From IMG/VR virus record IMGVR_UViG_2660238349_000014: a stretch of 35,039 nt of DNA; one strand, written 5' to 3'. The notes under the pieces were generated by a model. It worked only from the letters and a program-made list of their open reading frames with translations, ran no database searches and was not told the origin of the DNA. This DNA comes from a virus. Lineage: Duplodnaviria > Heunggongvirae > Uroviricota > Caudoviricetes. The translations under genes were made by a program, and so were the position numbers. This document shows positions 1 through 31,778 of this stretch, one piece after another; the stretch's first letter is position 1; each line of letters starts with the position of its first letter.

Positions 1-54
1 GAAAAATATCCTCTTTGTTTTGTTAAAAATACATAGCTGGTATAGGTGGGAGTT

Positions 55-80
55 AAGACGAAAACGTTGGTTTGGGGGAA
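55..80. other. invertase crossover site, hix/gix-like, opposite orientation to the site in the expressed fibre gene
   Basis: Reverse complement is TTCCCCCAAACCAACGTTTTCGTCTT, fitting the two half-sites-plus-central-AA layout of Hin/Gin/Cin/Pin sites as recalled from memory. Lies at the 5' end of cassette 1. Confidence 0.6.
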
Positions 81-539
81 GGCTCNGCGCTGCCCGTTGG
101 TGTGCCTGTTCCGTGGCCCTCAGCCACACCACCAACGGGCTGGCTGAAATGTAACGGTGCAGCATTTTCTTCTGAAATGTATCCCAAACTGGCAAAAGCT
201 TACCCCACCAATAAATTACCGGATTTACGGGGTGAATTTATTCGTGGCTGGGATGATGGGCGGGGAATTGATAATAGACGCAACCTACTGTCTGCACAGT
301 CTGACACTATTCAGAATATAGTTGGCACTTTTGGACGAACTCAGCTTTTTAAAGATGCTTTAAATTCAGGGCCATTTAGTCAAACTGACTCTATATTATC
401 AGTAGGCTTGCAACCAACTGAGAATATTGAAGGATATGGCGCCTCTGTATGGACATTCGACGCCTCTCGCTCAGTTCGCACAGCATCTGAAACACGTCCT
501 CGTAACATTGCGTTTAATTACATCGTAAGGGCGGCATAG
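72..539 (+). other. silent tail-fibre C-terminal cassette 1
   Basis: ORF opens with TTG inside the crossover site, not a real start. N-terminal ~65 aa (GEGSALPVGVPVPWPSATPPTGWLKCNGAAFSSEMYP...GRGID) nearly identical to the C-terminal part of the expressed fibre gene at 2636..3559. Variable middle, conserved end RPRNIAFNYIVRAA. Confidence 0.75.
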
Positions 540-558
540 AAACGTTGGTTTGGGGGAA
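533..558. other. invertase crossover site, hybrid of cassette 1 end and cassette 2 start
   Basis: Reverse complement TTCCCCCAAACCAACGTTTCTATGCC, identical to the sites at 1005..1030 and 2617..2642. Overlaps the cassette 1 stop codon. Confidence 0.6.
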
Positions 559-1011
559 GGCTCTGCACTACCTGTTGGTGTGCCTGTTCCATGGCCGTCA
601 GCCACACCGCCAACAGGGTGGCTGAAATGTAACGGTGCAGCATTTTCTTCTGAAATGTACCCCAATCTGGCAAAGGCTTACCCCACGAATAAATTACCGG
701 ATTTACGGGGCGAATTTATCCGTGGCTGGGATGACGGACGAGGTATTGATGCAGGACGAGAGATACTTTCATTTCAGGAAGGCACTATCGTCTCCGGTTT
801 TGATGATAATGATACTGGGGATATCAGTTCACTTAGCTCAACACAATACGGATTTGGTGACACTCTAACCTCTAATCAATGGGGGGCCATAAATGGCAAA
901 AAGTGGATATTTGATGCATCCAGTAAAGGTGCACAAAAATATGACTGGTGGGCTTATGTATCAGCTCGTCCGCGTAATATTGCATTTAATTACATCGTAA
1001 GAGCGGCATAG
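550..1011 (+). other. silent tail-fibre C-terminal cassette 2
   Basis: Same conserved N-terminal ~65 aa and C-terminal RPRNIAFNYIVRAA as the other cassettes, with a different central segment. TTG at the 5' end, no independent start. Confidence 0.75.
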
Positions 1012-1030
1012 AAACGTTGGTTTGGGGGAA
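1005..1030. other. invertase crossover site
   Basis: Identical 26-mer to 533..558, sitting at the cassette 2 / cassette 3 junction. Confidence 0.6.
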
Positions 1031-1498
1031 GGCTCTGCACTGCCCGTTGGTGTGCCTGTTCCGTGGCCCTCAGCCACACCGCCAACAGGGTGGCTGAAAT
1101 GTAACGGTGCAGCATTTTCTTCTGAAATGTACCCCAAACTGGCAAAGGCTTACCCCACCAATAAATTACCGGATTTACGGGGCGAGTTTATTCGTGGCTG
1201 GGATGACGGGCGAGGGATTGATGCAGGACGTGCTTTATTAAGCTTTCAAACTGGGATGCTGGAAAAACACCGCCATATTGTTGTAGCTAACGATGGGTAT
1301 GACACAAAGGATGAATGGGAGTTGGCCACAATTTTCAAAAAAACATATACACAAGGACGGGGACTTGATGCCACAAGTACAGGCGGGAGTCTGATCCCAT
1401 CACCGACACTTCATTCACGAGGGAGTATTGGTAACACTGGTGGTAGTGAAACTCGCCCCCGCAATATCGCATTTAACTATATCGTGAGGGCGGCTTAA
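1022..1498 (+). other. silent tail-fibre C-terminal cassette 3
   Basis: Conserved N- and C-terminal ends as in the other cassettes with a unique middle. Ends 6 bp from the convergent tail-fibre assembly gene. Confidence 0.75.
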
Positions 1499-1504
1499 TT
1501 ATAC

Positions 1505-2122
1505 TCAACTGGCTGCTGCCAGAGGCATTTCCGGCCAGTTGATATCCGGTGCAGTGCTGATGTCAGTCGCATTAAGCGTATCTATGAAATCAAGCACGGC
1601 GTTTAGTTTTTCCGTCTCCTGGGGCGTCAATCGGCGTCCGGCTCGTAGTTTGAGATTAATAAGCTCAACAGATGCCATTGCCTGTTCCTCAAGTTGCTGA
1701 CGATGCGCTCCGGCAGCTTCCAGTTCTGCTGCGTGCTGTCGTCTCGTATCTGTCACCCAAATCTCACCATCCCAGACATCATAGATAGTAGCTGGCTGTT
1801 TCACCGTCGTATCAGGAGGGTAATCTCCCGGTTGTGTGATTTGCACAGCGTTACCATTCTCTGTGCTGTAAACCGTTTCGCCTCTGTGGTCTGGAACATA
1901 TTTCCAGATGTTCTGGTCGGTATCACGACAGACAGCGAAGCCGGGGCGTTTTTCTGGTGGCGCGTCAATGCATGAGTGAGCCGGAATTCCAACACCATAA
2001 GCGAGATACTCAACAGTGGCAGAGAGATATTCACGGTTTTCAGCATCGTAGTTATAAACGGTAATATCGCCTGCAGTTATAGCGATACCATTCTGATCAA
2101 GTACTGCAGCAGCATTATTCAT
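1505..2122 (-). CDS. tail fibre assembly protein (Tfa / Mu U / P2 G-like)
   Basis: 205 aa. C-terminal segment LTPQETEKLNAVLDFIDTLNATDISTAPDINWPE resembles the conserved Tfa C-terminus. Start codon overlaps the stop of the upstream cassette at 2122. Confidence 0.75.
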   Translation of the reverse strand: MNNAAAVLDQNGIAITAGDITVYNYDAENREYLSATVEYLAYGVGIPAHSCIDAPPEKRPGFAVCRDTDQNIWKYVPDHRGETVYSTENGNAVQITQPGDYPPDTTVKQPATIYDVWDGEIWVTDTRRQHAAELEAAGAHRQQLEEQAMASVELINLKLRAGRRLTPQETEKLNAVLDFIDTLNATDISTAPDINWPEMPLAAAS

Positions 2123-2625
2123 TAAGTAGCCCTTACAATATAGTTAAACGCAATATTACGGGGGCGGTTTTCCGTTCCTGTATTCCCTCCGTTGGCACCT
2201 AATCTATAAACACCACGAGTGCCAATAGCACGTAGTGAAGATGGAACTTTTACACCTGACTCATCTGTTTTAACAATCCCGCCATCACCGTATGTAGCCA
2301 GTATACCAGGGTTTGTTCCTGCACGGGTGTTGTTTGCGGCAAGCCCTTCACCAGTCCATAACTCCATATAATGAATATGATCTATAACCGAATGTGATTG
2401 TGCATTAAGCAAGGAACGCCCTGAATCAATTCCCCGCCCATCATCCCAGCCACGAATAAACTCACCCCGTAAATCCGGTAATTTATTGGTGGGGTAAGCC
2501 TTTGCCAGTTTGGGGTACATTTCAGAAGAAAATGCTGCGCCGTTACATTTCAGCCACCCTGTTGGCGGTGTGGCTGAGGGCCACGGAACAGGCACACCAA
2601 CGGGTAGTGCAGAGCCTTCCCCCAA
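2122..2625 (-). other. silent tail-fibre C-terminal cassette 4, directly upstream of tfa
   Basis: Same conserved N-terminal ~65 aa, ends RPRNIAFNYIVRAT. TTG at the 5' end. Lies just downstream of the stop of the expressed fibre gene, same strand. Confidence 0.7.
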
Positions 2626-2642
2626 ACCAACGTTTCTATGCC
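2617..2642. other. invertase crossover site, same orientation as the site at 3059
   Basis: Plus strand reads TTCCCCCAAACCAACGTTTCTATGCC. Overlaps the stop of the expressed fibre gene and the start of cassette 4. Confidence 0.6.
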
Positions 2643-3559
2643 GCTCTTACGATGTAATTAAATGTAATGTTACGGGGACGGGTTTCTGAACCACCAGGTG
2701 CACTGGTTTCTATAGTGCCTAAATTTATTCTCGAACCGTTTGTATCCGCCCCGACAATGTACGGTCCACCAGTTCCATCTGGTCCATTTGCACCCCATAT
2801 TTCACGGAAGTAATGACTGTGCGATTTAAACATATCGCCCTGTAACGAAAGTAGAGTGCGTCCTGAATCAATTCCCCGCCCGTCATCCCAGCCGCGAATA
2901 AATTCACCCCGTAAATCCGGTAATTTATTTGTAGGATAAGCCTTTGCCAGATTGGGGTACATTTCAGAAGAAAATGCTGCGCCGTTACATTTCAGCCACC
3001 CTGCTGGCGGTGTGGCTGAGGGCCACGGAACGGGCACACCAACGGGCAGCGCTGAGCCTTCCCCCAAACCAAGGTTTTTGACAAACAGCGCAGGCTCAGG
3101 AATATCTGCGCCGTTCTGGTCTTTAGCCAGCTTTTCCGCCAGCTTGTTCAGTACCGTAGTCGCAAAGTTTGGATCATTACCGAGAGCGTCAGCCAGCTCT
3201 TTAAGCGTATCCAGTGTCTCAGGGGCGCTGCCTGCAAGTGCCGCAAGTGCTTTGGCCACAAACTCCGTCGTCGCCAGCTTTTTGCTGTTATCACCATTTG
3301 CAGGTGTAGGTGCTGTTGGTGTGCCGGTGAATGTCGGACTGGCTTTCGTCGCGTACTGGGTATGCGGGTCAACTGCCGCGATATGTGCAGCCAGGTCTGT
3401 TCCGCTTTTTTCGACCTTCTGTTTGAGGTATGACGTTCGGCTGGCCAGTTGTTTAGCCTGGCGGTTAGAAATTCCGTCAGGTCCGCCCAGAACGGGGTCA
3501 GAGACCTCAATCTGGTATATGCCGCTTTCCCACTGCGGGGTTTCGGGTAGATTTGCCAT
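2636..3559 (-). CDS. tail fibre protein, currently expressed variant (constant N-terminus fused to cassette 5)
   Basis: 307 aa. N-terminal part carries a P2 gpH-like collar motif (TEFVAKALAALAGSAPETLDTLKELADALGNDPNFATT). C-terminal part from ...NLGLGEGSALPVG onward matches the cassette family. First gene-sized ORF after the baseplate genes. Confidence 0.8.
   Translation of the reverse strand: MANLPETPQWESGIYQIEVSDPVLGGPDGISNRQAKQLASRTSYLKQKVEKSGTDLAAHIAAVDPHTQYATKASPTFTGTPTAPTPANGDNSKKLATTEFVAKALAALAGSAPETLDTLKELADALGNDPNFATTVLNKLAEKLAKDQNGADIPEPALFVKNLGLGEGSALPVGVPVPWPSATPPAGWLKCNGAAFSSEMYPNLAKAYPTNKLPDLRGEFIRGWDDGRGIDSGRTLLSLQGDMFKSHSHYFREIWGANGPDGTGGPYIVGADTNGSRINLGTIETSAPGGSETRPRNITFNYIVRAA
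3059..3084. other. invertase crossover site at the constant/variable junction of the tail fibre gene
   Basis: Plus strand TTCCCCCAAACCAAGGTTTTTGACAA. As recalled, close to Salmonella hixL (TTCTTGAAAACCAAGGTTTTTGATAA). Encodes the GLGEG junction. Confidence 0.7.
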
Positions 3560-3561
3560 AA

Positions 3562-4140
3562 TTAACTGCTCCCGTGGTTGTAACTACCGTCATAACGGGT
3601 AGTACTGTTGTATCGAATGGCGACAGACTGATATTCCAGACTTGCCAGATGACAGCGAGCCGGAGCAAAGGCAGCAAGCGTCTGACGTAACAGCGCCGCC
3701 TGATCGTTAGTGATGGGTTGTTGAAGGATGACGCGATAGACTGCCCAGGCTTGTGCATCACCATGGACGAAAAGCCCGTTGTACGTGTGTCTGCCGTCAT
3801 AGCCAATCTGCCCCGTACCTTCAATCAGATCCACTTCGCCGAAGCCAAAACGGCGGATAATTTCCCGGATTGACCACGGTGTTCCTTTATAGCGGTGTAG
3901 CTCGATAGCGGATTTGATAAGCATGCGGCGTACATCGTCCGATTCCGCCAGTTCCCAGCCATCGCCGAACAGCGAGAACTGCTCGCCAAGCCATGGCAGC
4001 GCGGAACTGTCGACAATATCGACGAGACCGACCATCAGTACGCTCAGGTCGATGTTATCCAGCCGTCCGGCCAGTCTTCCCAGCGTTCTGAGACTGATAT
4101 CACCCTCAAGCGGTGGCGGGAGTTGTAGCACCTCAGCCAT
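3562..4140 (-). CDS. baseplate protein (P2 gpI / Mu gp48-like)
   Basis: 192 aa. Position between the baseplate J-like gene and the tail fibre. Family assignment by synteny plus general resemblance. Confidence 0.55.
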   Translation of the reverse strand: MAEVLQLPPPLEGDISLRTLGRLAGRLDNIDLSVLMVGLVDIVDSSALPWLGEQFSLFGDGWELAESDDVRRMLIKSAIELHRYKGTPWSIREIIRRFGFGEVDLIEGTGQIGYDGRHTYNGLFVHGDAQAWAVYRVILQQPITNDQAALLRQTLAAFAPARCHLASLEYQSVAIRYNSTTRYDGSYNHGSS

Positions 4141-5236
4141 CGGACACCCCGGTCATGTTAAGAGTGATCGCCGTACAGTTTGCCCATTCGTTTTCTGCCA
4201 CCACCCTCAGTGCCGGTGTCACCAGTTCGACCTGGTACACCCCGGAAACGGACAACACGCTGATAATCTGGCTGGGAACAATATCGCGCCCCAGCGTGGC
4301 GGTACGGGATGCCACCCAGTTCTGTATGGCGCTGTTAGCGTTGTCCTTTACCAACCTTGCATCCTGATCACGATAGATCGTAATCCTGGCTTCAATGGTG
4401 TAATCCACCTGAACAGGTGTTTTAGCCCGCACGGTATCAGTGAGTGGTCTGACTTTTTCGTCAGAACAGAAACTCTCTACCAGAGTGAGGATACTGCTGT
4501 CCGGCAGACCAGTGCTGAGCAGCGGATACAGCTCGACAGTGCCGGGAGCGGGAGAAAGAACAGCAACGTCGACAATGCCGGGATGCGCCCCCATAGCATG
4601 AAAACGGTATGCACCACGGCTTCCGGCATTGGTGAATGACTCCGGGGCCAGCCTGATACGCTCCCGGAGCCGGTCATCGTCTTCCTGCTCTGAACCGCCA
4701 GAGCTGGCCGTCAGATTGGTCACCAGCAGGTCAATGTTATCAATCTCATCGAGTAACTGACTGACCTGCGCCGGTTGCCAGCCGTTGCCAGCGGTACCCG
4801 GCTCGGTACAGGTGGCCGTGACATTGACCAGCAGCAATCCGGCCTTCAGCACCACATCTGTATCGGTGGCAAAAATAATACTGTCGGAAGCGCTGACGCG
4901 GGTGCCTGCCGGGATCAGCACATCAATGGCCAGTGCCTCATCCACAGAGAACTGAAGTGTGGTGGTGGCAGGCTGCGCAGCAAGGCGGTATACACCGACC
5001 AGTTCACCGAGGTAATCAATCATCGGCTCACGGGAAAAAGCGACCAGATTCTGCTTCGCCGCCTCCTGTACTGCCACCCTGACCAGCATTTCGCGATAGG
5101 CCCACAGGTCAATCAGCAGACGTTCAGCCTGTGCCGGGTACAGCGTTTTTCCGGTATCCTCTTCATACTTCGCAATCATTTCTGCCGTGATTTTATCGGC
5201 ATCGCGTTCAATAAAATCGGGTTCTGTCAGCGCCAT
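4133..5236 (-). CDS. baseplate J-like protein (Mu gp47 / P2 gpJ-like)
   Basis: 367 aa. Overlapping start/stop coupling with neighbours, conserved position in a myovirus baseplate module. Confidence 0.6.
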   Translation of the reverse strand: MALTEPDFIERDADKITAEMIAKYEEDTGKTLYPAQAERLLIDLWAYREMLVRVAVQEAAKQNLVAFSREPMIDYLGELVGVYRLAAQPATTTLQFSVDEALAIDVLIPAGTRVSASDSIIFATDTDVVLKAGLLLVNVTATCTEPGTAGNGWQPAQVSQLLDEIDNIDLLVTNLTASSGGSEQEDDDRLRERIRLAPESFTNAGSRGAYRFHAMGAHPGIVDVAVLSPAPGTVELYPLLSTGLPDSSILTLVESFCSDEKVRPLTDTVRAKTPVQVDYTIEARITIYRDQDARLVKDNANSAIQNWVASRTATLGRDIVPSQIISVLSVSGVYQVELVTPALRVVAENEWANCTAITLNMTGVSDG

Positions 5237-5574
5237 AGCAGTTCCTGAGTACGGGGTTGTCCGTCTGAGCCTTTCCAGCTCACCCGGAGCGTAAGATGTT
5301 CGCCGTCGACGGCGGGTTTAACCGACATAAGCTGGCAGCGGGGTTCCCAGCGCCTGATGGCATCGACGGATTCGCGAACCACATGCGGAATGGCCCGGTC
5401 GACAGGCCAGTCGATATAAAGGTGCAGATTGCTGCCGAACTCCGGGCGATGCGGGTCGCTGCCGCGGGGAGTCCGCAGGATGATCTGGATGGACTGCCGG
5501 ATATCATCCAGCCCCCGGACGATTTCGCCGGGAGCCTGCAGAGCTGGTTGCCAGAATACTGAGGTCGTTTTCAT
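5227..5574 (-). CDS. baseplate wedge protein (GPW / gp25-like)
   Basis: 115 aa, size and position typical of the gpW/gp25 family. Confidence 0.6.
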   Translation of the reverse strand: MKTTSVFWQPALQAPGEIVRGLDDIRQSIQIILRTPRGSDPHRPEFGSNLHLYIDWPVDRAIPHVVRESVDAIRRWEPRCQLMSVKPAVDGEHLTLRVSWKGSDGQPRTQELLWR

Positions 5575-5630
5575 GGAGGCAGTATTGCCCCCGGGAAGTA
5601 AGCGCCGATATTAAAGGCGTTTAAGAAGGT

Positions 5631-6158
5631 TCAATGGGAATGGTGATTAGAGTTCTGACCATCAGCAAATATGTTACCCGTTGCATGGGCGCTTCCGTTG
5701 ATTTCCAGATCACCATTGAGTGTCGCGGGGCCGTTGATCGTGGTAACTCCCGTGAGGTCGAGGTTTTTCCCTTTGAGAGAGATATCAGCGGCAACCTCCA
5801 CCACGATACGCTCAATACCTCCTCTGACCGTCAGCGTATGGGTCGCGCGGTTATAACTGAACTCCGCGCCATCAGCGTATTTCGTACCCCGGACGTTTTT
5901 ATCACTGAACGGCGGTTTATCGACGTCTGAGTACACCGCGCCCAGAATAACACCATCCTCGCCGTTGGCATCGAGCAGCACCTCAACCTGCTCCCCCACG
6001 TCAGGGAGCCAGTAATCCTTGTTATCCTGGGTATTGCGCTGTAGCACGTTAAGCCAGTTTGTGCGCAGATTATCGCATTCAGGCAGACGAACGCGGGCCT
6101 GAACCCTGTCGGCATCAACGGCACTGACCGTACCGATCTGACGGGTGACACCAGTCAT
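5631..6158 (-). CDS. baseplate spike / assembly protein V-like
   Basis: 175 aa. N-terminal region typical of gpV-type spike proteins, position upstream of the gpW-like gene. Confidence 0.6.
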   Translation of the reverse strand: MTGVTRQIGTVSAVDADRVQARVRLPECDNLRTNWLNVLQRNTQDNKDYWLPDVGEQVEVLLDANGEDGVILGAVYSDVDKPPFSDKNVRGTKYADGAEFSYNRATHTLTVRGGIERIVVEVAADISLKGKNLDLTGVTTINGPATLNGDLEINGSAHATGNIFADGQNSNHHSH

Positions 6159-7309
6159 TTTTTCTTCTCCTTAATCACCGTCGATGTACTGCCATCCGGG
6201 TGATAAACCGTGAGTTTCTGAGTTTTTTGTTTTTTCCCTCTTGTGACTGGCCCCCGTGCCACTTCCAGCTCTGTGGTGTAGCCGCTGTTACGCTCAAACG
6301 CATGGCGGGCAGTGATTATCAGCCATGGACCGGATAACTGTCCAAAGCCCACCAGTTCAATTTTGTTGCCTGCTGTCAGTTGAGGCGTTCCCGTCAGCGT
6401 CAGGGAGCCGTTCTGCTGGTATTCGTTATGTCTGGCCAGTGCTGAATCCGCTTTAATCCGGGCACTGTCCGGGTCGCTGACGCGGCTGTTAACTTTAAGT
6501 GAGTCAGCGCTGGTAACCTTACCNCCTTTGAGCTTTTTGTCGCTTTCACGGGTACCACCATCAGCTTCGTAGACGATCAGTTTTTTACTGCTGCTTTTCT
6601 GGTGTTTTACCTTTGCAGATTTATAGACCCGGTTGATGGTGTCACGCAGGGAAAAGCNGGCCACATCCTGCGGTTTTAACTGCCTGACCGGCTCCTGACT
6701 GCGCAGTGTGGCCAGATGAGAAAAAATCANCTGGTCACTGACCACTTTCACTGCATAACCATACTCGCTGGCCAGCCGGCGCAGAAAACCCACGTCGGTT
6801 TCAGCATACTGGGTCACCCGGTCGATTCTGATGGACTCAATGCTGCCCACCAGTTTCAGCCGGTGCTTTCTGGCAATCCGCCCCGCAACAGCTGCCAGCG
6901 TGGTGTTCTCAAAACCACGGCTGGATTTAGTCCGCAGAGCACTGTTAACCGAGGTGGCCACCCCACGGATAGCGACAACGGACGCGGGCGAACTCACTTC
7001 GATCTCGTCTATTGAGAATGTACCGCAGGACAGCAGTTTCTCGCCCTGATAACCCATTTTCAGCGTCAGCGTGTCACCCTTGCCCGGATACCACTTATCC
7101 AGCCAGCGGCCATCGGTGTCGTCCAGCTCCACCTCAATGGTATCGGACTCATTTTTGATGTTATCGCTCCAGACCACACGGGTGACATAAGGCGCGATAT
7201 CAGAGGTGATGTTTTTCTGCAGATACCACAGAGTGAATACCGGCGTCAGCACATCGCTGACGCCGGTTAACGCTGATGTGGCTTGCGCAGTACTGTTTAT
7301 CTCAGCCAT
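6155..7309 (-). CDS. baseplate hub protein (P2 gpD / Mu P-like)
   Basis: 384 aa. Position between the X-like and V-like genes. Contains ambiguous codons (X). Confidence 0.55.
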   Translation of the reverse strand: MAEINSTAQATSALTGVSDVLTPVFTLWYLQKNITSDIAPYVTRVVWSDNIKNESDTIEVELDDTDGRWLDKWYPGKGDTLTLKMGYQGEKLLSCGTFSIDEIEVSSPASVVAIRGVATSVNSALRTKSSRGFENTTLAAVAGRIARKHRLKLVGSIESIRIDRVTQYAETDVGFLRRLASEYGYAVKVVSDQXIFSHLATLRSQEPVRQLKPQDVAXFSLRDTINRVYKSAKVKHQKSSSKKLIVYEADGGTRESDKKLKXGKVTSADSLKVNSRVSDPDSARIKADSALARHNEYQQNGSLTLTGTPQLTAGNKIELVGFGQLSGPWLIITARHAFERNSGYTTELEVARGPVTRGKKQKTQKLTVYHPDGSTSTVIKEKKK

Positions 7310-7512
7310 GGGGCAATATCCTCTTCTGTACGGGCATCTTCAGCCTCAATAACCGGGATCAGTAACAACAACCCGGAGGGCAGCACCGGCGTAATGGCCA
7401 CGTGCGGATTGGCTGCAATAATCCGGGGATAGCCCAGCGGGTCACCGTAGTACTGCCATGCCAGCGAATCCCAGCGCTCTCCGTCACGGGTAATATGTTC
7501 AAGAAACATCAC
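7297..7512 (-). CDS. tail protein X-like (LysM-like small tail protein)
   Basis: 71 aa with GERWDSLAWQYYGD...IIAANP, resembling the P2 gpX family. Confidence 0.55.
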   Translation of the reverse strand: MMFLEHITRDGERWDSLAWQYYGDPLGYPRIIAANPHVAITPVLPSGLLLLIPVIEAEDARTEEDIAPWLR

Positions 7513-8393
7513 ACACTCCTCGTCAGTATTCTGGCGGCCATTGCACTTAATCCCGGAGACATGCGGTTGAATGCTGTGCCGGCGGCGTTAAGCTGCCCGG
7601 AAACGGTATCCAGAGCACCTGCAATATTTCTTTTGTCCACACCACTCAGCGCCGACTGCGCCTGCTGTACATACGTGGCTGCCTCACTGGCTGTTCTGGC
7701 CAGACTGATGGCATCGGGCATGGATTCAGAGAGTGCATTAAACGCCGGAATACTTTTCCCCAGAGCGCCGGATATATTACCCAGTCCGCTCATCAGTCCC
7801 GGCACACGGGTCAGCGCGACAACGGGGTTACCCTTCATTTTCTGCGCCACCCGAACGGCACTGATAGTGGTCTGGAGTACAGACTGCGCCTGTTTCGCAT
7901 AGTTGACGCCGTTACGGACGAACTGCGCCACCCCGGAAGGCGATGGAACAGCACCCGATACAGCTCCGGCACCGGGAACCTGCCTGCGTATTGCCGGCGG
8001 TTGCAGAGGATTTTTCGGGTCACCGGTGTATTCCCGGAGAGACACGGTGGCACTGACAGCCAGCACGTTACCGGTGCTGTCTGTCTGCTCGCTGGTTGCG
8101 GTCACATCGGTAATCACGAACCAGCCGCGATAGTCACCGTTGCCGAAGACCAGCGCCAGTGCCTGATGGGCCTTCATGGCTGTTCGCACTCTCGCCAGCT
8201 CCACGTCGGGCACACAATAATGCTGATGGAAGACCAGGCTTATCTGGATTTCGTCCAGCCTGTCGCCGACAAACTGCAGGCCGGGTTTACCCTCGATGCG
8301 GGCATGCTCCGCATAATCGACGCCAAACGTGGCCTCGAAGCCGTCCCAGTAGGTAATCAGTTCAAACTCAATATCACCCAGTACGGCAAACAT
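7509..8393 (-). CDS. DNA circularisation protein N-like (Mu gp43-like)
   Basis: 294 aa, immediately downstream of the tape measure gene as in Mu-like tail modules. Confidence 0.5.
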   Translation of the reverse strand: MFAVLGDIEFELITYWDGFEATFGVDYAEHARIEGKPGLQFVGDRLDEIQISLVFHQHYCVPDVELARVRTAMKAHQALALVFGNGDYRGWFVITDVTATSEQTDSTGNVLAVSATVSLREYTGDPKNPLQPPAIRRQVPGAGAVSGAVPSPSGVAQFVRNGVNYAKQAQSVLQTTISAVRVAQKMKGNPVVALTRVPGLMSGLGNISGALGKSIPAFNALSESMPDAISLARTASEAATYVQQAQSALSGVDKRNIAGALDTVSGQLNAAGTAFNRMSPGLSAMAARILTRSV

Positions 8394-10858
8394 CAGCTGT
8401 ACTCCTTACGTTGTTTCTGAGCCAGCAGACGCTCCAGCATTTTTTCCAGCTCATGCAGGCTCATATTCAGGGCACCAGCCAGCCCGGCAGGCGCTGCGGT
8501 TTCCTTACCATTGAGGAAAAACTGAGGATTAAAGCTGACCTGGATACCGCCAGACGCTCCACCGCCGGTTGCAGTTGCGCCACGGCCTGAATATCCGGCA
8601 GCCATGATTTCCGGCGACGGGATACGGGGAACATCCGGTGTCATTTCAGCGGCCAGGCGCTGCCCGGCCAGTGCAGCAAGCGGAGTGGTCCGTTGCAGGC
8701 CAATGGCGGCACCCTGCGCGATATTGTCACCAAAGCCTATAAACACGCGACTCGGTGAATGGATGCCCAGCTTTTCGCTGAACCAGTCACTGATGCTGTC
8801 ACCCATTCCGGTTATGCTGGTTTTCAGTGACTCCCATTTGTTTCTGATGCCATTTATCAGCCCGTCGATAAGATGACCACCGAAGTCGGTGAACTTCGCC
8901 GGCAAATCAACGCCGAGATATTTCAGCGCAGCCGCAAAGGCTTTATAAAGCAGACCCGCCGGAGACCAGTTAACCAGCAGTTTACCAATTCCCGCGATGC
9001 CGCCGTTAAAGGCTTCCTGAATGTCAGCCCAGCGCTGTTTAAACCAGCTACTGACTGCGCCCCAGTTGCGGTAGATAAGGTAAGCTGCTGCCGCGACGGC
9101 GGTGATAGCGAGACCGATGGGATTCATCATCAGCGCCCGGCCAATCCAGAGAAGGGCACGTGCAGCAATCATAAAACCGCGAACGAGGCTGCCCGCCAGA
9201 ACTTTGCTGAGTTTCAGTCCTCCGCTGGCCAGCCGGCTGAATCCAGTGACAAGCCAGCGTAATTTGCCACCTTCTCCGAGTGCGGTAGTCAGTCGACGCC
9301 AGTTGGTCCGCAGTAAAACAGCATTTTTCCAGACGCTTACAAAGGGGGAAATAAGGAGATTCAGCCCAAGCTTGAGACCGATAGTGGCCATCCTGAAAGC
9401 GAGTAATGCGCCCACAACCTTTATGGTGCTGCTGACGAGCTGCGGATTTGCCGCTATCCATTTGCCGACGCTGTCCATTAAAGGAATAAATGTTTCACCC
9501 AACTGGAGCAAAGCCGGACGCAAGGATTGCCCGATGCTGATAGCAGAATCATTAAAGCCGATCTGCATTCTGCGCCAGCGACCTTCAAGCGTATCATTCT
9601 GCTTTGCAGCATCCTTATCCAGGGTAGACATTGCAGCCGGAGCATTCATTTCCTGCTTACTGGAAAGGTATTTATCCCAGCCCTGTCGCATTGACAGTAA
9701 ATGGTTGACAGTCTGAATATCGGTAAAGACCTCAGCCAGACCAAATGACTCCATGAGTTTCTGCTGACCTTCCTGATCGCCTCTTGCTCCTGCAGCTTTC
9801 CATTGCTGCAAAAACGCTTTGCCTTTACTGTCGATAAAACGGTTGGCAATCATCAGTGAAGCTTCGTACTGCGAAAAACCCTGAGCGACGTAATTCTGCA
9901 TTGACCCCTGGTAATCCACCCCGGCTTTAGCATATTTCTGGATGGTATCTCCGCGGCCCATTGCTGCCAGCCAGTTGGACATATTGGTGACCGCTTCCTC
10001 TGCAGAGCCACTACCTTTACCGACCTCCAGACTGGCAACAATCTGGGTAATCGCATCTTTTCCATAAATGCCACGGGCAGCGAAGGCTTTAGCCATACCG
10101 GGTAATGCTTTTGCCATATCCTTCAGCTCAAATGACCCAAGTTTGGCTCCTGTTGCCGCAATACCAAATGCCTGTTCAAGTTCTTTCGCATCAGTGATTC
10201 TGAGTGCATCGCTGAAGGCATAAGTCATTTTGGCAAGGTCGGTCATATCGGCTTTGGTTGCTGTAGCGGTCTTTCCAAGCATCTCTGCAAACGTTGCTGC
10301 CCGTTCGGGGGCCATACCATCAGCAACTAATTGTCCGACTCCCCCTAACAGAGACTCCTGCAGTTGGTTAACCTTCAGCGAGGCCTGTCTGATAGCCAGG
10401 CCAATTGCACGTTCCTGTTTTGCATCCAGGTCTCCTGTGACACTGATATCCCGTAACTGTGATTCAAACGAGGCATATTGTTTAACCGAGGCCATGACCG
10501 GTGCGCCCAGCGTTCTGCCAATAGCATAGGTTTCTGCACCCTGACCATAGAGCGCCAGGCGGTTAGCCTTCAACGCATCACCGGTGGCTGATACTGCTGA
10601 CAGACGGCGCTGCTGACGTTCAATTTGCTCCATGGTGCGGCTTACCCGCAGCAACTCGCTGTTGAGATGCTGCATCCGGGAAGAACCCAGTTGACCATAA
10701 CGTTCTGTTGCCCGGGTTAAGGCATTCTGGCGTTCCTGCAGACGGCGGGAGGTATCACCAAGGGAATCAAGGGCGCGTCGGGTGCCACTGACGGCTGAGC
10801 GGAAGCTGCTCCCGACAATGCCGCCAATAATGACGCCGACTGAAAATTCACTGGCCAC
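8393..10858 (-). CDS. tail tape measure protein
   Basis: 821 aa, the longest ORF in the window. Alanine/glycine-rich and predicted helical, with hydrophobic segments. Lies between the chaperone and baseplate genes. Confidence 0.8.
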   Translation of the reverse strand: MASEFSVGVIIGGIVGSSFRSAVSGTRRALDSLGDTSRRLQERQNALTRATERYGQLGSSRMQHLNSELLRVSRTMEQIERQQRRLSAVSATGDALKANRLALYGQGAETYAIGRTLGAPVMASVKQYASFESQLRDISVTGDLDAKQERAIGLAIRQASLKVNQLQESLLGGVGQLVADGMAPERAATFAEMLGKTATATKADMTDLAKMTYAFSDALRITDAKELEQAFGIAATGAKLGSFELKDMAKALPGMAKAFAARGIYGKDAITQIVASLEVGKGSGSAEEAVTNMSNWLAAMGRGDTIQKYAKAGVDYQGSMQNYVAQGFSQYEASLMIANRFIDSKGKAFLQQWKAAGARGDQEGQQKLMESFGLAEVFTDIQTVNHLLSMRQGWDKYLSSKQEMNAPAAMSTLDKDAAKQNDTLEGRWRRMQIGFNDSAISIGQSLRPALLQLGETFIPLMDSVGKWIAANPQLVSSTIKVVGALLAFRMATIGLKLGLNLLISPFVSVWKNAVLLRTNWRRLTTALGEGGKLRWLVTGFSRLASGGLKLSKVLAGSLVRGFMIAARALLWIGRALMMNPIGLAITAVAAAAYLIYRNWGAVSSWFKQRWADIQEAFNGGIAGIGKLLVNWSPAGLLYKAFAAALKYLGVDLPAKFTDFGGHLIDGLINGIRNKWESLKTSITGMGDSISDWFSEKLGIHSPSRVFIGFGDNIAQGAAIGLQRTTPLAALAGQRLAAEMTPDVPRIPSPEIMAAGYSGRGATATGGGASGGIQVSFNPQFFLNGKETAAPAGLAGALNMSLHELEKMLERLLAQKQRKEYS

Positions 10859-10950
10859 GGTGGCTATCCTCTGAAAGCAAAAAAACGGAAGGGAAGTGTC
10901 TGAACCCCATGCAGAACAGCCGCGACTGGCGGCTGTTAAGTGATACGTTG

Positions 10951-11208
10951 TTACTGATTGTCGCCGAACTCGCTTTTGATTTGCTCTTCAGCCTGCTCCA
11001 GCCACATCTCCAGATCGTCAGTATCGAGGGCATCAATCTCCCCCGGCTGAAACCTGAACCATCTCGCCAGCAGGCCCTGCGCCTGCATCAGTGTTTTTGT
11101 CGCTCTTGCCCAGCCCAGTGATTTTCTGAAATCGTTTCTGCAGCTCCATATAGTCGGCAAGATCCATGTTATCGAGGTCTTCCGGGAGGATACCGGTGCT
11201 ACGGGCAA
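10951..11208 (-). CDS. frameshift extension of the tail assembly chaperone (candidate)
   Basis: Reading frame open across the chaperone stop in the +1 frame. C-terminal QPGEIDALDTDDLEMWLEQAEEQIKSEFGDNQ looks like authentic protein. G5 run at the junction. Confidence 0.4.
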   Translation of the reverse strand: MPVAPVSSRKTSITWILPTIWSCRNDFRKSLGWARATKTLMQAQGLLARWFRFQPGEIDALDTDDLEMWLEQAEEQIKSEFGDNQ

Positions 11209-11374
11209 TCAGTGGTTCGTCCCAGTCTGCCGGGTCTTTGTTGATTTTGCGCACCTGCTTCAGGTCTTTTACTGTCAGGCGTTTCAGTTCAATCTGTTCA
11301 ATTCTGGTACCTGCAGCAGTGGTGAAAGGATAAGACAGCGTAAAAGTATCGGACTGGGTCTGTGACATGATCAT
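11033..11374 (-). CDS. tail assembly chaperone
   Basis: 113 aa, immediately upstream of the tape measure. An overlapping ORF in the +1 frame (10951..11208) ends in an acidic tail. Confidence 0.6.
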   Translation of the reverse strand: MIMSQTQSDTFTLSYPFTTAAGTRIEQIELKRLTVKDLKQVRKINKDPADWDEPLIARSTGILPEDLDNMDLADYMELQKRFQKITGLGKSDKNTDAGAGPAGEMVQVSAGGD

Positions 11375-11465
11375 ACTCCTTTGTAAATTCAGAGCAGTAT
11401 GTCTGGCGGTGGACGTGACGGATATTAAAGGAGATTAAGAAGAAGGGGCCGGAGCCCCTGTGATG

Positions 11466-11747
11466 TCAGCAAGTGCGAAAACCCTTGCAGTTACGCAGGA
11501 AAGCGATGAGAAGCGCCTTTCCCTCAGATTTGCCGATGCCGGAGAACCAGTGGTCGGGCGGCTCCCATGCTTCAATCAAATCGGCCAGTTTGCGGGCCTT
11601 TGAACGTGTGCAGTCAATCGGGTCATTGGTTTTACGGGTATTAAAAAGGGTTTCCACCCCCGGAATATCAAGGAGGGTAAACCACGTACCATTTGACATG
11701 CCCAGTGACGCACATCGCCCTCCTTTGTCAGTCAGTTCAACACTCAC
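11466..11747 (-). CDS. hypothetical protein
   Basis: 93 aa ORF with GTG start 2 bp after the tube gene stop, co-oriented with the operon. No recognisable motif. Confidence 0.3.
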   Translation of the reverse strand: MSVELTDKGGRCASLGMSNGTWFTLLDIPGVETLFNTRKTNDPIDCTRSKARKLADLIEAWEPPDHWFSGIGKSEGKALLIAFLRNCKGFRTC

Positions 11748-11749
11748 CG

Positions 11750-12271
11750 TCAGCCCCCGATATTGATCCGATAGTCAGTCAGTTGATCAACGCCACCGAC
11801 GCGGAAGATGTTGGCCAGATAGTCCAGTTGCAGCAACTCTTCACCATCCAGTACCTGTCTGATATACGTGCAGGTGAAGCTACTGGAGAACTCGGCGTTC
11901 TCGTGCTGTTTAAACGTCCCCAGCGGGTTCTTCTTGAACATAATTGTCAGGAAGGTGACCAGCGGGATTTCGTCGATCAGCCCCTGCGAGCTGTAGCGCT
12001 GGACGCTGGAGCGACACTGCAGCGCCAGCGACTTGTACGGGTTCGCGGCAGACAGCATCGCATCGCGGTAAAAGCTGTTCCATTTGATTTCGCCTTCCAG
12101 TTTGTCAAAACCAGCCGGGAGTTCCACCTTACCCACCATCCCCAGTGCCTTGTGTTCCTGCATAATCATGGAGACATCGGGGAGTTTAACCTCCTCAGCC
12201 CGTCCCAGCAGGTTAGTACCATCCAGATAGATGTTGGCATTCGTGATTCGGTTTATCTCAATCTTTGACAT
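11750..12271 (-). CDS. tail tube protein (Mu M-like)
   Basis: 173 aa, directly downstream of and coupled to the sheath gene. Confidence 0.7.
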   Translation of the reverse strand: MSKIEINRITNANIYLDGTNLLGRAEEVKLPDVSMIMQEHKALGMVGKVELPAGFDKLEGEIKWNSFYRDAMLSAANPYKSLALQCRSSVQRYSSQGLIDEIPLVTFLTIMFKKNPLGTFKQHENAEFSSSFTCTYIRQVLDGEELLQLDYLANIFRVGGVDQLTDYRINIGG

Positions 12272-16166: not shown

Positions 16167-17282
16167 TTACAGGCAGCGTGCGACAGCAGCCTCATAGCTG
16201 ATGCCTTCTTTTTTGGACAGGGCCACTGCTTTCTGATGCAGGGCCAGACGCTCAGGATCGGCTTCCGCAAACTCCGCCACATCCACCTTCACCGTGTCGC
16301 CGACACGCTCNTTTGTGGCCTGTTCGGCGAAATTCATCACCGGCTCCCCGTCGGAGAGCAATGAACGNAAGGCGGTGGCCAGCGGNGTGCGGCTTTCCCC
16401 CTCAGCAAACTCCACCGGCTTGTCGCCACCGGCGACGGCATCCAGCAGGGCAACCACCACGGAGGAGGCGCGGGGAGCCAGACGNCCCTCTGCGACCAGT
16501 TTTTCTGCAAAGGCCACATTGTCCTTATGCAGTTGCTCCTGTCTGNCCTGTGCATCACGCGCATCGCGATCAGCAGCCTGCTGCTTCAGGCGGCGGTTCT
16601 CCTCCTGAAGGGNTTCAATCTCTTCTTTTGTCATCGATGATTCCTCGTTACTTGCGGAAGACGGCACCTGGCCTGTCTCACTGAATTGTGCACCTGCTGC
16701 ATCCTGCGACNGTGTGTCGCGGTACGCCTCTTCGCGCAGANTGTTGAGCTGCCATTCCGGCAGGACTTTTTCTGCNTCGTCCAGACTGAAGCGGGCGATC
16801 AGAAAATCGCGCAGCTTTCCCCACAGGGAGGCATTCGTGATGGCCTGCCAGTCGGCGAACTCCACCACACCTTCTTCCTGCTCACTGAAGGACACCTGTT
16901 TCAGCCCCTTGANGGAAGGTGGCTGTGCNCCGAGAAAGCCCACATGGCGAAGGTAGAGCACGCCGGGCTTCGGATTGGACGGTGAATCCGGGAGGTAGAA
17001 AGAGGCGGACACTTTTTTGAATCGTCCGTCGGTGACCATCTCAGCAAACTGCGGGTCCAGCTGGGCAGGCTCTGCCATCAGATCGACGCCGCTGAGCGAC
17101 AGGGCTTTCACCCAGCCCCACGCCGGGTCTTCCGTTCTGGGATGACCAATCACGAGTGGTGCTTCATGGACGGACGGGTCATAGGCTTTCACGCAGGCGG
17201 CAAGATCGTCTGGCGTGAACGGCAGTTTTTTGCCGTGCATATCGGTATGAGTACCGGCTTTAAAAATGTGAATGGCTGACAT
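16167..17282 (-). CDS. head protease / scaffold protein (Mu I-like)
   Basis: 371 aa with a Glu/Gln/Arg/Ala-rich coiled C-terminal half. Several ambiguous codons. Confidence 0.6.
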   Translation of the reverse strand: MSAIHIFKAGTHTDMHGKKLPFTPDDLAACVKAYDPSVHEAPLVIGHPRTEDPAWGWVKALSLSGVDLMAEPAQLDPQFAEMVTDGRFKKVSASFYLPDSPSNPKPGVLYLRHVGFLXAQPPSXKGLKQVSFSEQEEGVVEFADWQAITNASLWGKLRDFLIARFSLDXAEKVLPEWQLNXLREEAYRDTXSQDAAGAQFSETGQVPSSASNEESSMTKEEIEXLQEENRRLKQQAADRDARDAQXRQEQLHKDNVAFAEKLVAEXRLAPRASSVVVALLDAVAGGDKPVEFAEGESRXPLATAXRSLLSDGEPVMNFAEQATXERVGDTVKVDVAEFAEADPERLALHQKAVALSKKEGISYEAAVARCL

Positions 17283-25001: not shown

Positions 25002-25772
25002 ATGAAAATGCAGACATTACCCATCGTTCCATGGATTGGTGGCAAACGCCGCCTTGCAAAACACATCCTGCCGCTGTTTCCGGCGCATGAATGTTATGTG
25101 GAGCCGTTTTGTGGGGCAGCAGCGCTCTATTTTCTTAAGGTACCCGGCAAGATCGAAGTCATTAATGATATCAACGGTGAGCTGGTGAACCTGTATCGGG
25201 TGGTAAAACATCATCTGGAAGAATTTGTACGCCAGTTCAAATGGGCGCTGGTCAGCCGGCAGATCTACAAATGGCTGCAGATCACCCCGGAAGAAACACT
25301 GACGGATATCCAGCGTGCAGCACGGTTCTACTACCTTCAGAAGCAGGCGTTTGGGGGCAAGGTGGCGGAGCACAGCTTTGGTACCTCCACCATATCCCCG
25401 CCACGCTTCAACCTGCTGCGTATTGAAGAAGAACTGTCAGCGGCACACCTGCGGCTTTCCAGAACGGTCATAGAACACATGGACTGGCAACAGTGCATAG
25501 AACGATATGATCGCCCGCATACGTTGTTCTACTGTGACCCTCCATACTGGGGAACGGAAGGTTATGGTGTGGAGTTCGGACTAGAAAATTATGATCATAT
25601 GGCAGATTTAGCACGCAGGATCAAAGGGAAGATGATTATATCGGTGAACGATATCCCGGAAATGCGGCAGGCATTCAACGGTCTAAATATTCAGTCGGTT
25701 GATATCAGCTACAACCTCAAGATCACTGGCAAATCCAGTCGCAAGAAGGAACTCATTATCCTCAACTTTTGA
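25002..25772 (+). CDS. DNA adenine methyltransferase (Dam-type), no restriction partner visible
   Basis: 256 aa with a glycine-rich SAM-binding motif (PFCGAAALYF) and the catalytic DPPY motif (FYCDPPYWG). Confidence 0.8.
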   Translation: MKMQTLPIVPWIGGKRRLAKHILPLFPAHECYVEPFCGAAALYFLKVPGKIEVINDINGELVNLYRVVKHHLEEFVRQFKWALVSRQIYKWLQITPEETLTDIQRAARFYYLQKQAFGGKVAEHSFGTSTISPPRFNLLRIEEELSAAHLRLSRTVIEHMDWQQCIERYDRPHTLFYCDPPYWGTEGYGVEFGLENYDHMADLARRIKGKMIISVNDIPEMRQAFNGLNIQSVDISYNLKITGKSSRKKELIILNF

Positions 25773-26967
25773 CCGAATAGTAAGACTTCATGCAGTGAAT
25801 CAAGTACTGCATGAAGTCAAGGGCTGGTTTTGTGTACCAAAAATAAACAGTGATAGCGGTAATAATTCCCATAACTAGAACACCACGTATAATCCAGAAC
25901 GTACGTTTCTGCGTGTCTAGTCGCGCAGAAATACTGCTAAATACACCAGCCACGTCATCTTTAATGAAGGAATATTCCTTATTAATCTGTTTTTCTTTGT
26001 ATTCAATTTCTTCGCCTAAGGCCTTTATAGATTGCATCTGGTTCGAAAGTGCCAGCCAGATTAACGTTGCAGCAAAAATGCATCCCAGAAGAATTATTGT
26101 GTTTGTTATCCCTTGGCCTGACCATTTCGTAGCCACTTTGAATTGGGTAGCTACGATAACAGAGGCAACAGGAATGCCAAGTATATGGTTCTGGATATCT
26201 GAAAACGCTTTGTGGATTTTACCCATTTCTTCGACTTTTGCAGCACGCAGTTGATCCATTACTTTGTCATAAGAGAATCCAGAAGAGTAGATACGATACC
26301 CTTTCAGAAACTTTTCATGCAGACGCTGAATATTGTCCAGTAAATAAGCGAATACTAGAGGTGAATCAATTCCATCACTAACTGCTTGAATACTTTCAAT
26401 CAGAATATCTAGCTTCTGATCCTTATGGGTATCATCATTGAAACAAGCTATAAGGTTATCAAGATACTCCCTTTGCAAATTTTGTACATTTTCTGCAGCG
26501 AAGTGCGGTAATAGCTTGATAACTTCTTTTTTCAGAAAAACTAACTGACAAGTTGAGTTATCAAAGTAGGCCGCGGCCTCTTTTAGCAGGTTAACGAACT
26601 CGAGAATCTTCCGGTAGTTGCTGATGAAAACGGGGATATCTTCATCATCATTACGAAATTTTGTTTCTAGGATGAAGTAATTAGCTGGCTCAAGGCACTG
26701 ATGCTTTGGAGCATTTAGCAATTTTTCATGGGTGGAAAACACAAGTCCCAGTCCACTCCGTGGTGACGTCACACGTAGGATGATCGTGTTACCTGGAGCG
26801 ATAGTGCCTGTATCAATAGAAAGACCATATTCACGAGGATCATCAAGCAAAGTATCAACCAGATCACAATCGGACTGATCTAAGAGCAACAGCGAACCGA
26901 CACGAAACCCCTCTTGGAATTCCATACGACGATACAGAGCTGTCAGCATCTCAAATGAAATCGCCAC
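25762..26967 (-). CDS. membrane protein with a large cytoplasmic N-domain and two C-terminal TM helices; partner of the NdpA-like gene
   Basis: 401 aa. Hydrophobic helices ITNTIILLGCIFAATLIWLALS and TFWIIRGVLVMGIITAITVYFWY. GTG start 2 bp after the upstream stop. AT-richer than the phage backbone. Confidence 0.6.
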   Translation of the reverse strand: MAISFEMLTALYRRMEFQEGFRVGSLLLLDQSDCDLVDTLLDDPREYGLSIDTGTIAPGNTIILRVTSPRSGLGLVFSTHEKLLNAPKHQCLEPANYFILETKFRNDDEDIPVFISNYRKILEFVNLLKEAAAYFDNSTCQLVFLKKEVIKLLPHFAAENVQNLQREYLDNLIACFNDDTHKDQKLDILIESIQAVSDGIDSPLVFAYLLDNIQRLHEKFLKGYRIYSSGFSYDKVMDQLRAAKVEEMGKIHKAFSDIQNHILGIPVASVIVATQFKVATKWSGQGITNTIILLGCIFAATLIWLALSNQMQSIKALGEEIEYKEKQINKEYSFIKDDVAGVFSSISARLDTQKRTFWIIRGVLVMGIITAITVYFWYTKPALDFMQYLIHCMKSYYSVKS

Positions 26968-26969
26968 GA

Positions 26970-27977
26970 TTAAACCTCAGTCATCCACATTTCCCTAAAT
27001 TCTTCAGGTACATTACGTAGGGTGATAATATTTGTTTCCGGATCATAATCAATATAGCCTTCAGTTTTCCCTTCCCGGTCAAACTTAAGTTCCCAATATT
27101 TAGACTTGCCTTTAAAAGATACCAGAGCCCGAATGACTCGACCATCAGGAACGAAGCCATCCGATAACTCCAACTCTTCAGCAGCAAGTTTACCAGATAA
27201 CTCCTCGGGAGCCTGGGGCCAAATGGCATTAACAAGGGTTTCAAGACTAAGTGGTTCACCAGCCTTACTTAGTGCATGTAAGTGTTCAAACGCACTCTTA
27301 AGAAATGCATCTTTTTCAGCGCCGTCAAGTCCTTTCTCTGCCGCAAATGCTTTTAAAACGTCACGTAACTTTTCAGACTCTCGTTTGGCGATTAAGACAT
27401 CATTACAGCCTAGGAACTGTTTAAAATAGTTTGAAACATTACCTTGCCCCTTAAGAAAACTGATATAGCGCTCTGCGCCACTTTCCCACGCGGTTAAGTC
27501 AATGCGCCCAGCCATACGCAGCTTAGCAATATCAAGATAGGTACTATCTTGGATGTTAAAATCATCTGTGACAGTGGACCCAATGGTAGCGCTTACAATA
27601 GCTATCAACAGGTGTTCATTGTGTCCTATCACGATATTTGCAAAAAGAACATAACCACCAGTAGCCATGTTTTCTCGCTGAGAACGTTCCGTCAGGTGAT
27701 GCATCATTCGGCAGGAACTTTGGTAGAAATCATCAACACCTTCGAGAAAGTCCCCAGCCATTCGTTCCATAGGATAGTTATCCGTATCGCCTTCAAAATA
27801 GCCATAACCTTTACCTGTGCGTCCTGCATATTTTGCACAAATATCGTTTATAAGGCGCTGAGAGGCTTCAGTAACTAGACCTTCTTCAGGACTCAATCTC
27901 TCAGAAGCGTCTCCATTTTGTTGTTTGTCTAAAATGTGAACTACAACGTGTTTAACTTCAATGGTCTGCTCAGACAT
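26970..27977 (-). CDS. NdpA/YejK-like nucleoid-associated protein homologue
   Basis: 335 aa. Motifs GGYVLF, LLIAIVS, YLDI, RIDLTAWE and RYISFLKG match, from memory, conserved blocks of E. coli YejK (also ~335 aa). Strong RBS AAGGTGGA before the ATG at 27977. Confidence 0.6.
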   Translation of the reverse strand: MSEQTIEVKHVVVHILDKQQNGDASERLSPEEGLVTEASQRLINDICAKYAGRTGKGYGYFEGDTDNYPMERMAGDFLEGVDDFYQSSCRMMHHLTERSQRENMATGGYVLFANIVIGHNEHLLIAIVSATIGSTVTDDFNIQDSTYLDIAKLRMAGRIDLTAWESGAERYISFLKGQGNVSNYFKQFLGCNDVLIAKRESEKLRDVLKAFAAEKGLDGAEKDAFLKSAFEHLHALSKAGEPLSLETLVNAIWPQAPEELSGKLAAEELELSDGFVPDGRVIRALVSFKGKSKYWELKFDREGKTEGYIDYDPETNIITLRNVPEEFREMWMTEV

Positions 27978-28455: not shown

Positions 28456-28471
28456 TTGAACATATCTCAAT

Positions 28472-28499
28472 TTGACACACTCATTTGGGTGTGTACAAT
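28472..28499 (+). promoter_or_regulatory. sigma70-like early promoter overlapped by an operator-like inverted repeat
   Basis: TTGACA (28472..28477), 16-bp spacer, TACAAT (28494..28499), about 45 bp upstream of the ner-like ATG. Inverted repeat ACACAC (28475..28480) / GTGTGT (28489..28494). Confidence 0.6.
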
Positions 28500-28543
28500 A
28501 GACCCAATAGAGTACATCATAACCTAACAGGAACACGGTGCAT

Positions 28544-29995: not shown

Positions 29996-29998
29996 CCA

Positions 29999-31768: not shown

Positions 31769-31778
31769 GGAGGGANAC

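Follow-up and report, generated by a model that had tools for sequence, protein, structure and literature searches.

The best-known multiple-inversion switch is the Min system of plasmid p15B from Escherichia coli 15T− (Sandmeier et al., 1990 in PNAS and 1992 in J Bacteriol). Min is reported to have six sites and 240 isomers. Here we analyse a tail-fibre locus of related design at positions 55–3,559 of a 35,039-nucleotide stretch of viral DNA (IMG/VR record IMGVR_UViG_2660238349_000014; the whole stretch is called the window below), in which one expressed fibre gene and four silent cassettes are accompanied by five 26-bp sites. We are highly confident that this locus is a Din-family (Pin/Gin/Cin/Min-type) multiple-inversion switch of the tail-fibre receptor-binding tip, and that an E. 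coli prophage of the transposable, BcepMu-like type carries it. The switch is to all appearances active, but it is of a known kind that is common in E. coli prophages and brings no new mechanism, serine-invertase multiple inversion having been known since Min of p15B.

PMC6109161 presents Min as a multiple-inversion system with a constant 5′ part of the fibre gene, alternative 3′ cassettes and overlapping invertible segments. Min-type multiple inversion extends the two-state Gin, Cin and Pin switches, according to the same paper and to Sandmeier 1994 as cited in PMC4134206. As in Min, one Din-family serine invertase serves more than two 26-bp sites here: the window has five sites, three pointing one way and two the other, the relatives have a single invertase gene beside their arrays, and one constant 5′ part is combined with several in-frame, promoter-less 3′ parts. 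The differences concern the carrier (a BcepMu-like transposable prophage here, a P1-like plasmid prophage there), the number of sites (five here, six there), the constant part of the fibre and the invertase, which is Pin-like in our case.

Among the two-state switches, the P segment of e14 in E. coli K-12 with its invertase PinE came closest, having the most similar invertase tested (83% identity) and the most similar site (22/26, with an AA core); the C-terminus of a fibre is switched there too. However, e14 has two sites, two states and a tfa gene for each alternative, whereas five sites, 48 states and one tfa were found here. The Mu G segment with Gin, like the P1 C segment with Cin, is of the same mechanism class, and there too the gene for the invertase closes the phage genome and adjoins the invertible region. 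Mu differs in having two states, a GA core and an Sv-U gene pair for each alternative, compared with an AA core and five sites here; moreover, the Sv parts of Mu are not homologous to the Collar cassettes described below, the sole PDB sequence match to Mu S lying in the constant part (residues 137–167).

Switches with more than two states have also been demonstrated by experiment in E. coli prophages. In a P2-like prophage of enteropathogenic E. coli (EPEC) E2348/69, a three-repeat “shufflon-like” switch produced four variants with three C-termini, as established by PCR and sequencing (Goldberg et al. 2014, PMC4272514). It is a multi-state fibre switch like ours, but with three sites and in a P2-like prophage. 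The R64 shufflon (Rci/sfx/pilV) resembles our locus in its constant 5′ part, several invertible 3′ cassettes and many permutations, yet it targets a pilus adhesin, whereas a phage fibre, a serine invertase and hix-like 26-mers are found here. PMC11852207 describes R64 as using a tyrosine recombinase and asymmetric sfx sites. As the recombinase of the relatives is of the serine type, we rejected membership of the locus among R64-type shufflons. An original prediction made from the window alone had likened the locus to Min or shufflon-type systems; the likeness to Min stands and that to the R64 shufflon does not. The same prediction held that the locus exceeds the two-state Mu G and P1 C segments. 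With five sites and 48 states it does, although five cassettes are not exceptional, since up to 8 are found in relatives and more than 14 in P1-like plasmids.

Crossover sites and fibre cassettes

Searching the 35-kb window with TTCCCCCAAACCAASGTTT and allowing up to three mismatches, we obtained exactly five matches, at 62–80, 540–558 and 1012–1030 on the minus strand and at 2617–2635 and 3059–3077 on the plus strand, against 0 in 100 shuffles; the chance expectation for five 26-bp sites was likewise 0. Site A (3059–3084, plus strand, TTCCCCCAAACC-AA-GGTTTTTGACAA) forms the junction between the constant and variable parts of the expressed fibre gene and encodes ...VKNLGLGEG.... Site B (2617–2642, plus strand, TTCCCCCAAACC-AA-CGTTTCTATGCC) is direct relative to site A, and its outer half holds the stop codon of the expressed gene. 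The remaining three sites are on the minus strand: site C (1005–1030) has the same letters as site B (TTCCCCCAAACC-AA-CGTTTCTATGCC), site D (533–558, TTCCCCCAAACC-AA-CGTTTCTATGCC) contains the stop codon of the cassette named cas5 below within its outer half, and site E (55–80, TTCCCCCAAACC-AA-CGTTTTCGTCTT) is the one proximal to the invertase.

Only the cassette-side half site, the AA core dinucleotide (identical in 5/5 sites) and the next few bases are common to all five. The outer half site falls into three context types set by the upstream neighbour: GGTTTTTGACAA adjoins the constant fibre part, CGTTTCTATGCC is the 3′ end of the preceding cassette with its stop codon, and CGTTTTCGTCTT adjoins the invertase leader. 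These outer halves are more degenerate in the four silent sites than in site A. When aligned with sites taken from public records, site A agreed with e14 pix (located in stfP) at 22 of 26 positions, with AA as the core in both, and with Mu gix at 20 of 26; the constant-side half of the motif is the dyad half site TTGTCAAAAACC, as in pix and gix. In prophage Phi2 of E. coli EC958, the half site AAACGTTGGTTTGGGGGAA was printed as a crossover site, and PacBio reads directly revealed inversion of the segment (Forde et al. 2014, PMC4134206). Phi2 shares the cassette-side half site, with a 227-bp repeat, and has two sites as opposed to five. Each site in the window opens an intact Collar-domain cassette at its 5′ end and begins a repeat of 215–273 bp, with 89–95% identity among the copies. 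Judged by the alignments to pix and gix, the 26-mers are genuine Din-family crossover sites, with the family's build of two imperfect, inverted 12-bp half sites flanking a 2-bp core.

The expressed tail-fibre gene (2636–3559, minus strand, 307 aa) consists of a constant part of ~163 aa joined at site A to the cassette cas1. The constant 5′ part (3073–3559, minus strand, ~163 codons) comes after a gpI-like baseplate gene (3562–4140), and cas1, the variable 3′ part now expressed, occupies 2636–3072 (minus strand, 144 codons from the core). Among the silent cassettes, cas2 (2122–2625, minus strand, 168 codons) has the orientation of the expressed gene, while cas3 (1022–1498, plus strand, 159 codons) is one head of a double-headed segment, cas3-tfa-cas2. 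They are followed by cas4 (550–1011, plus strand, 154 codons from the core), which is the expressed cassette in three related loci (L010, L090 and L091), and by cas5 (72–539, plus strand, 156 codons from the core), with a predicted fusion product of 319 aa. All five cassettes have intact reading frames of 144–168 codons, in frame with the fibre, and all five contain a Pfam Collar domain. The original prediction had placed five hix/gix-like sites of 26 bp at 55, 533, 1005, 2617 and 3059 and proposed a constant part with silent cassettes, three sites being opposed and one direct; its coordinates and orientations proved exact, the architecture was as proposed, and the alignments to pix and gix agree with its naming of the sites.

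The cassette products are nearly identical over their first 67 aa (one T/A difference and one ambiguous base), variable over the middle 60–85 aa and conserved again over the last 13 aa, with RPRNI(A/T)FNYIVRA at the end. Whole cassettes aligned with the receptor-binding tips of solved short and long tail fibres (9CUY; T4 gp37, 2XGF). The predicted fibre isoforms measure 307 aa with cas1, 317 aa with cas4, 319 aa with cas5, 322 aa with cas3 and 331 aa with cas2. Relatives express the cas4 form or the cas1 form, and the 317-aa protein is annotated in L090 and L091.

A scan of positions 1–3700 revealed no promoter-like or terminator-like signals above chance, and no independent promoter for tfa or the silent cassettes, which is consistent with cassettes that are silent and promoter-less. 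RefSeq gives the parts of the locus generic labels only (“phage tail protein”, “recombinase family protein”), and its annotation treats the cassettes as separately expressed fibre genes. We rejected that reading because the cassettes have neither the constant N-terminal part nor a promoter, because the TTG start is merely mechanical and lies inside the crossover site, and because three of the cassettes are antisense to the late operon.

Natural shuffling and the invertase

Many public assemblies encode precisely the fibre expressed here (constant part plus cas1). We examined eight, all of which match the window at 99.7% identity or more across the adjoining 7 kb. All five cassettes are retained in seven of them, in seven orders; the eighth (L099) is without cas4. 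In E. coli JNEC-KY180 (L091) the same five cassettes are present with cas4 expressed, a state three inversions away from that of the window. Thus, the same five cassettes occur in eight different orders (window and L095, L094, L096, L097, L098, L100, L101, L091) in prophages at least 99.7% identical, hosted by separate E. coli genomes. Mouse strains of E. coli have a related remnant prophage at yehR, which was found in four orders. Because eight orders occur in near-identical prophages, the system, as far as genome comparison can tell, really shuffles.

To describe the possible orders, we divided the locus into four segments, three holding a single cassette each and one double-headed (cas3 – tfa – cas2), permitted inversion only between opposed sites and enumerated the states by breadth-first search. 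The model reached 48 configurations and five fibre isoforms; an identical model with six sites reached 240, as is reported for Min. The eight orders seen among the 48 possible ones are all legal under the half-site rule. From the window state, a single inversion suffices to express cas3, cas4 or cas5 and cas2 takes two, confirming the original claim that the cassette at site 2617 (there counted as the fourth) needs two inversions. Sites A and B are in direct orientation, and recombination between them would therefore delete cas1. Cassette loss is seen among relatives in L099 and in the two-cassette versions L092 and L093, and duplication in L002, L026 and L065.

The position of exchange could be narrowed down by following single cassettes through their three contexts; cas4, for instance, lies inside the array in the window, is the expressed cassette of L010 and borders the invertase in L001. 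In every case, the 12 nt that precede the core go with the context. Conversely, cassette-specific single-nucleotide polymorphisms (SNPs), which begin at an offset of 19 nt past the core, remain with cas1, cas2, cas4 and cas5 in every context. Since these SNPs stay with their cassettes, the exchange point lies within ~19 nt of the core, and its confinement to the site points to site-specific recombination and not to general homologous recombination across 215 bp.

The window begins with the leader, or 5′ untranslated region, of the invertase gene (1–54, minus strand), whose ATG is the base before position 1 and lies outside the window. This segment is 100% identical to its counterpart in L001, L009, L010, L012 and L014, which there separates the invertase ATG from the outermost site. 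In L095 and every other close relative examined, a gene for a 190-aa serine invertase starts at the base just ahead of window position 1, is the single invertase gene and stands at the end of the array; the original expectation of a serine invertase to the left thus held in every close relative, L095 included. L095 (GCA_021764835.1) is collinear with window positions 1–9559 at 99.7% identity, and its intact invertase gene is 100% identical in nucleotide sequence to that of L010. The invertases of the relatives carry the Resolvase (E 1.7e-51) and HTH_7 (E 1.3e-13) domains with Ser9 present, match the Gin structures 3UJ3/4M6F (E ~1e-90) and have 83% identity with PinE of e14 and 73% with Gin of Mu. 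In all of the complete E. coli genomes examined, the last phage gene is a 573-bp “recombinase family protein” gene, directly past the outermost site and ~77 bp from the host junction. Accordingly, the window lacks the last ~650 bp of the prophage, made up of the invertase gene and another ~77 bp. Because the window starts right at the base upstream of the ATG, the invertase was probably cut off at the gene boundary and not lost.

Taken together with the state model, these observations suggest the following mechanism. A small serine invertase encoded just left of window position 1 would cut the five 26-bp sites at the AA core common to them all and recombine any two that are inverted to each other. 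Each inversion would fuse the constant 5′ part in frame to another promoter-less Collar-domain cassette and reshuffle the rest; the fusion would be in frame every time because the cassette-side half is invariant and the outer half is context-specific. Switching of this kind would be expected to change host range. By analogy with the family, in which a Fis-bound enhancer lies in cis within the 5′ part of the invertase gene, Fis and such an enhancer are presumed to be required. A search of the relatives' invertase genes (the region outside the window) for the Fis consensus gave one degenerate match at nt 71–85 of the gene, at the same aligned position in gin and pinE; the pattern is too degenerate for an enhancer call, and no second site was identified in this search.

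The different orders could in principle also arise by RecA-dependent homologous recombination between the 215–273-bp inverted repeats, the 26-bp motif being merely the conserved start of a coding repeat. The repeats are long enough, and at 89–95% identity similar enough, for RecA. The heads of cas3 have mosaic SNP patterns among the relatives, suggesting that some gene conversion or homologous recombination acts on the repeats too, and the cassette loss and duplication in L099, L002, L026 and L065 also speak for it. As a full explanation, however, we consider it very improbable: the SNPs of cas1, cas2, cas4 and cas5 from offset 19 onwards stay with their cassettes in all three contexts, the motif matches pix and gix with the constant-side dyad half site TTGTCAAAAACC included, and a Pin-like invertase is always found beside the array.

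It is similarly hard to credit that the locus is a frozen relic, in which sites and cassettes persist in a fixed order while the source invertase is absent or inactive. The window does lack the invertase gene. Yet it stops precisely at the invertase start codon, as if trimmed at a gene boundary and not shortened by a deletion; L095 has the identical arrangement with an intact invertase gene; all five cassettes are intact open reading frames (ORFs); and other prophages of the cell could supply an invertase in trans, as has been suggested for EC958 Phi4 (PMC4134206). Least probable to us is that the cassette order in the window is an assembly artefact, that is, a product of collapsed or mis-joined repeats or a consensus of a mixed population. 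Five repeats of 215–273 bp are hard for short reads, and the window contains 61 isolated N bases, one of which (86) falls on the first cassette-specific SNP column. Against this, the order is a legal state of the model and recurs base for base in the independent assembly L095, and complete genomes show the same kind of array. Since the layout is the same in complete genomes, an artefact could affect only which of the 48 orders is given and not the existence of the system; collapsed repeats, which the original prediction had named as a danger, are therefore excluded as an explanation of the architecture.

Some points nevertheless weigh against a reading of the locus as an active invertase-driven switch. 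The mosaic heads of cas3 do not follow the pattern of the other cassettes. The evidence is comparative, obtained between genomes, and reports past events and not rates or switching inside the source population. The presence of the invertase gene in the source genome is deduced from relatives.

Chaperone gene and prophage context

The tail-fibre assembly chaperone gene tfa (1505–2122, minus strand, 205 aa; Pfam Caudo_TAP, E 8.7e-26) lies between the converging cas3 and cas2, and its start overlaps the cas2 stop codon (TAATG). Because no crossover site separates the two, tfa always moves with cas2, and this linkage is kept in all relatives. In the state model, tfa is oriented with the fibre operon in all cas2-expressing states, opposed to it in all cas3-expressing states and in either orientation otherwise; it is opposed in 6 of 8 genomes expressing cas1. 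We infer from this arrangement that Tfa serves the cas2 tip only, in which case the other four cassettes would fold without Tfa.

Gene content and closest matches mark the window as an E. coli prophage, a transposable myovirus of the BcepMu-like type. The tail region (3560–12000) is 87% identical to “Klebsiella phage KP12” and 92% identical to Escherichia phage PhiKM (Bcepmuvirus). The backbone includes an rve-type transposase, an AAA+ MuB-like protein, a CI-like repressor, a Dam methylase and Mu-like head genes, and the fibre gene is adjoined by P2/Mu-type baseplate genes, the gpI-like gene at 3562–4140 being followed by J, W and V. The prophage is present in nine complete E. coli genomes at an identity of at least 99.3% (over 3090–7000), with 2 to 6 cassettes per copy. 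In all four complete genomes whose flanks were examined (L090–L093) it occupies different chromosomal sites, with a truncated host gene adjoining in two of them (ygjJ, fepE); varied insertion sites fit a Mu-like transposable phage.

The same stretch has a two-gene block at 25762–27977 (minus strand), between the Dam methylase gene (25002–25772) and the CI-like repressor gene (28048–28551). One product, of 401 aa, has no Pfam match and a weak PADLOC match to KwaA (E 8e-5); the other is a 335-aa homologue of NA37, the 37-kD nucleoid-associated protein (E 1e-80). Phage KP12 has other small ORFs in place of this block, which may be a moron or a defence pair.

The isolated N bases are scattered over the window (e.g., 6524, 16311–16929 and 29773–31962) and clustered in some genes, leaving X residues in several predicted proteins; this pattern suggests a consensus from polymorphic reads or masked ambiguity codes. 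The only N in the switch region, at position 86, stands in the SNP column at offset 19, which reads G in cas5, T in cas2, cas3 and cas4, and A in cas1. It may reflect reads from mixed arrangements, a weak hint given the 60 other Ns.

Related arrays and a possible cassette pool

IMG/VR contains 71 loci with this site, 12 of which have five to eight sites. The window is not among the IMG/VR contigs bearing the site, as none of them shares its site spacing. The number of cassettes in related loci ranges from 2 to 8, with eight sites and cassettes in the prophage contigs L026 and L036. Cassette arrays of P1-like plasmids are 83–90% identical in nucleotide sequence to that of the window, and one such plasmid (L102, NZ_CP135665.1; 97 kb, non-mobilizable) carries a run of at least 14 cassette ORFs labelled “phage tail protein”, several of which are duplicates. 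A scan of genome contigs, one genome per species, for the silent-type site found six stretches, three of them in one Escherichia genome, and was uninformative on distribution.

E. coli 2014C-3075 has two switch loci (L001 at 0.996 Mb and L093 at 2.297 Mb) with an identical invertase (WP_001165548.1) and the same crossover sites. Recombination between the two could in principle invert or delete a megabase-scale segment of the chromosome.

Cassettes are also shared with unrelated phages. A P2-like prophage of E. coli S1-CHI-01-A (L002, positions 3600–6570), unrelated to the one studied here, contains cas1 (twice), cas2, cas3 and tfa at 99–100% nucleotide identity; its constant-side half site is different (TTCTTGATTACC). 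Such near-identity indicates that cassettes have been swapped between phage lineages, and recently. At least 40 Collar-domain variants were seen. More speculatively, the locus might be one outlet of a species-wide pool of receptor-binding cassettes that share a common half site across unrelated lineages (BcepMu-like, P2-like and P1-like plasmids) and are exchanged between co-resident phages by the invertase or through the repeats, in an integron-like manner, with arrays growing to 8 or more than 14 cassettes and most cassettes folding without Tfa; we regard this as possible but doubtful.

For genome analysis, the locus matters in two practical respects: annotation routinely turns the silent cassettes into “phage tail protein” genes of their own, and repeats together with population heterogeneity break or scramble contigs. 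It also bears on the prediction and engineering of host range in E. coli myoviruses. The points of greater interest are a possible cassette pool across lineages, the very large arrays of phage-plasmids and the apparent Tfa independence of most cassettes. For the prophage itself, a single genome would provide five receptor-binding tips in 48 genome isomers, and a lysogen population would release virions of mixed host range.

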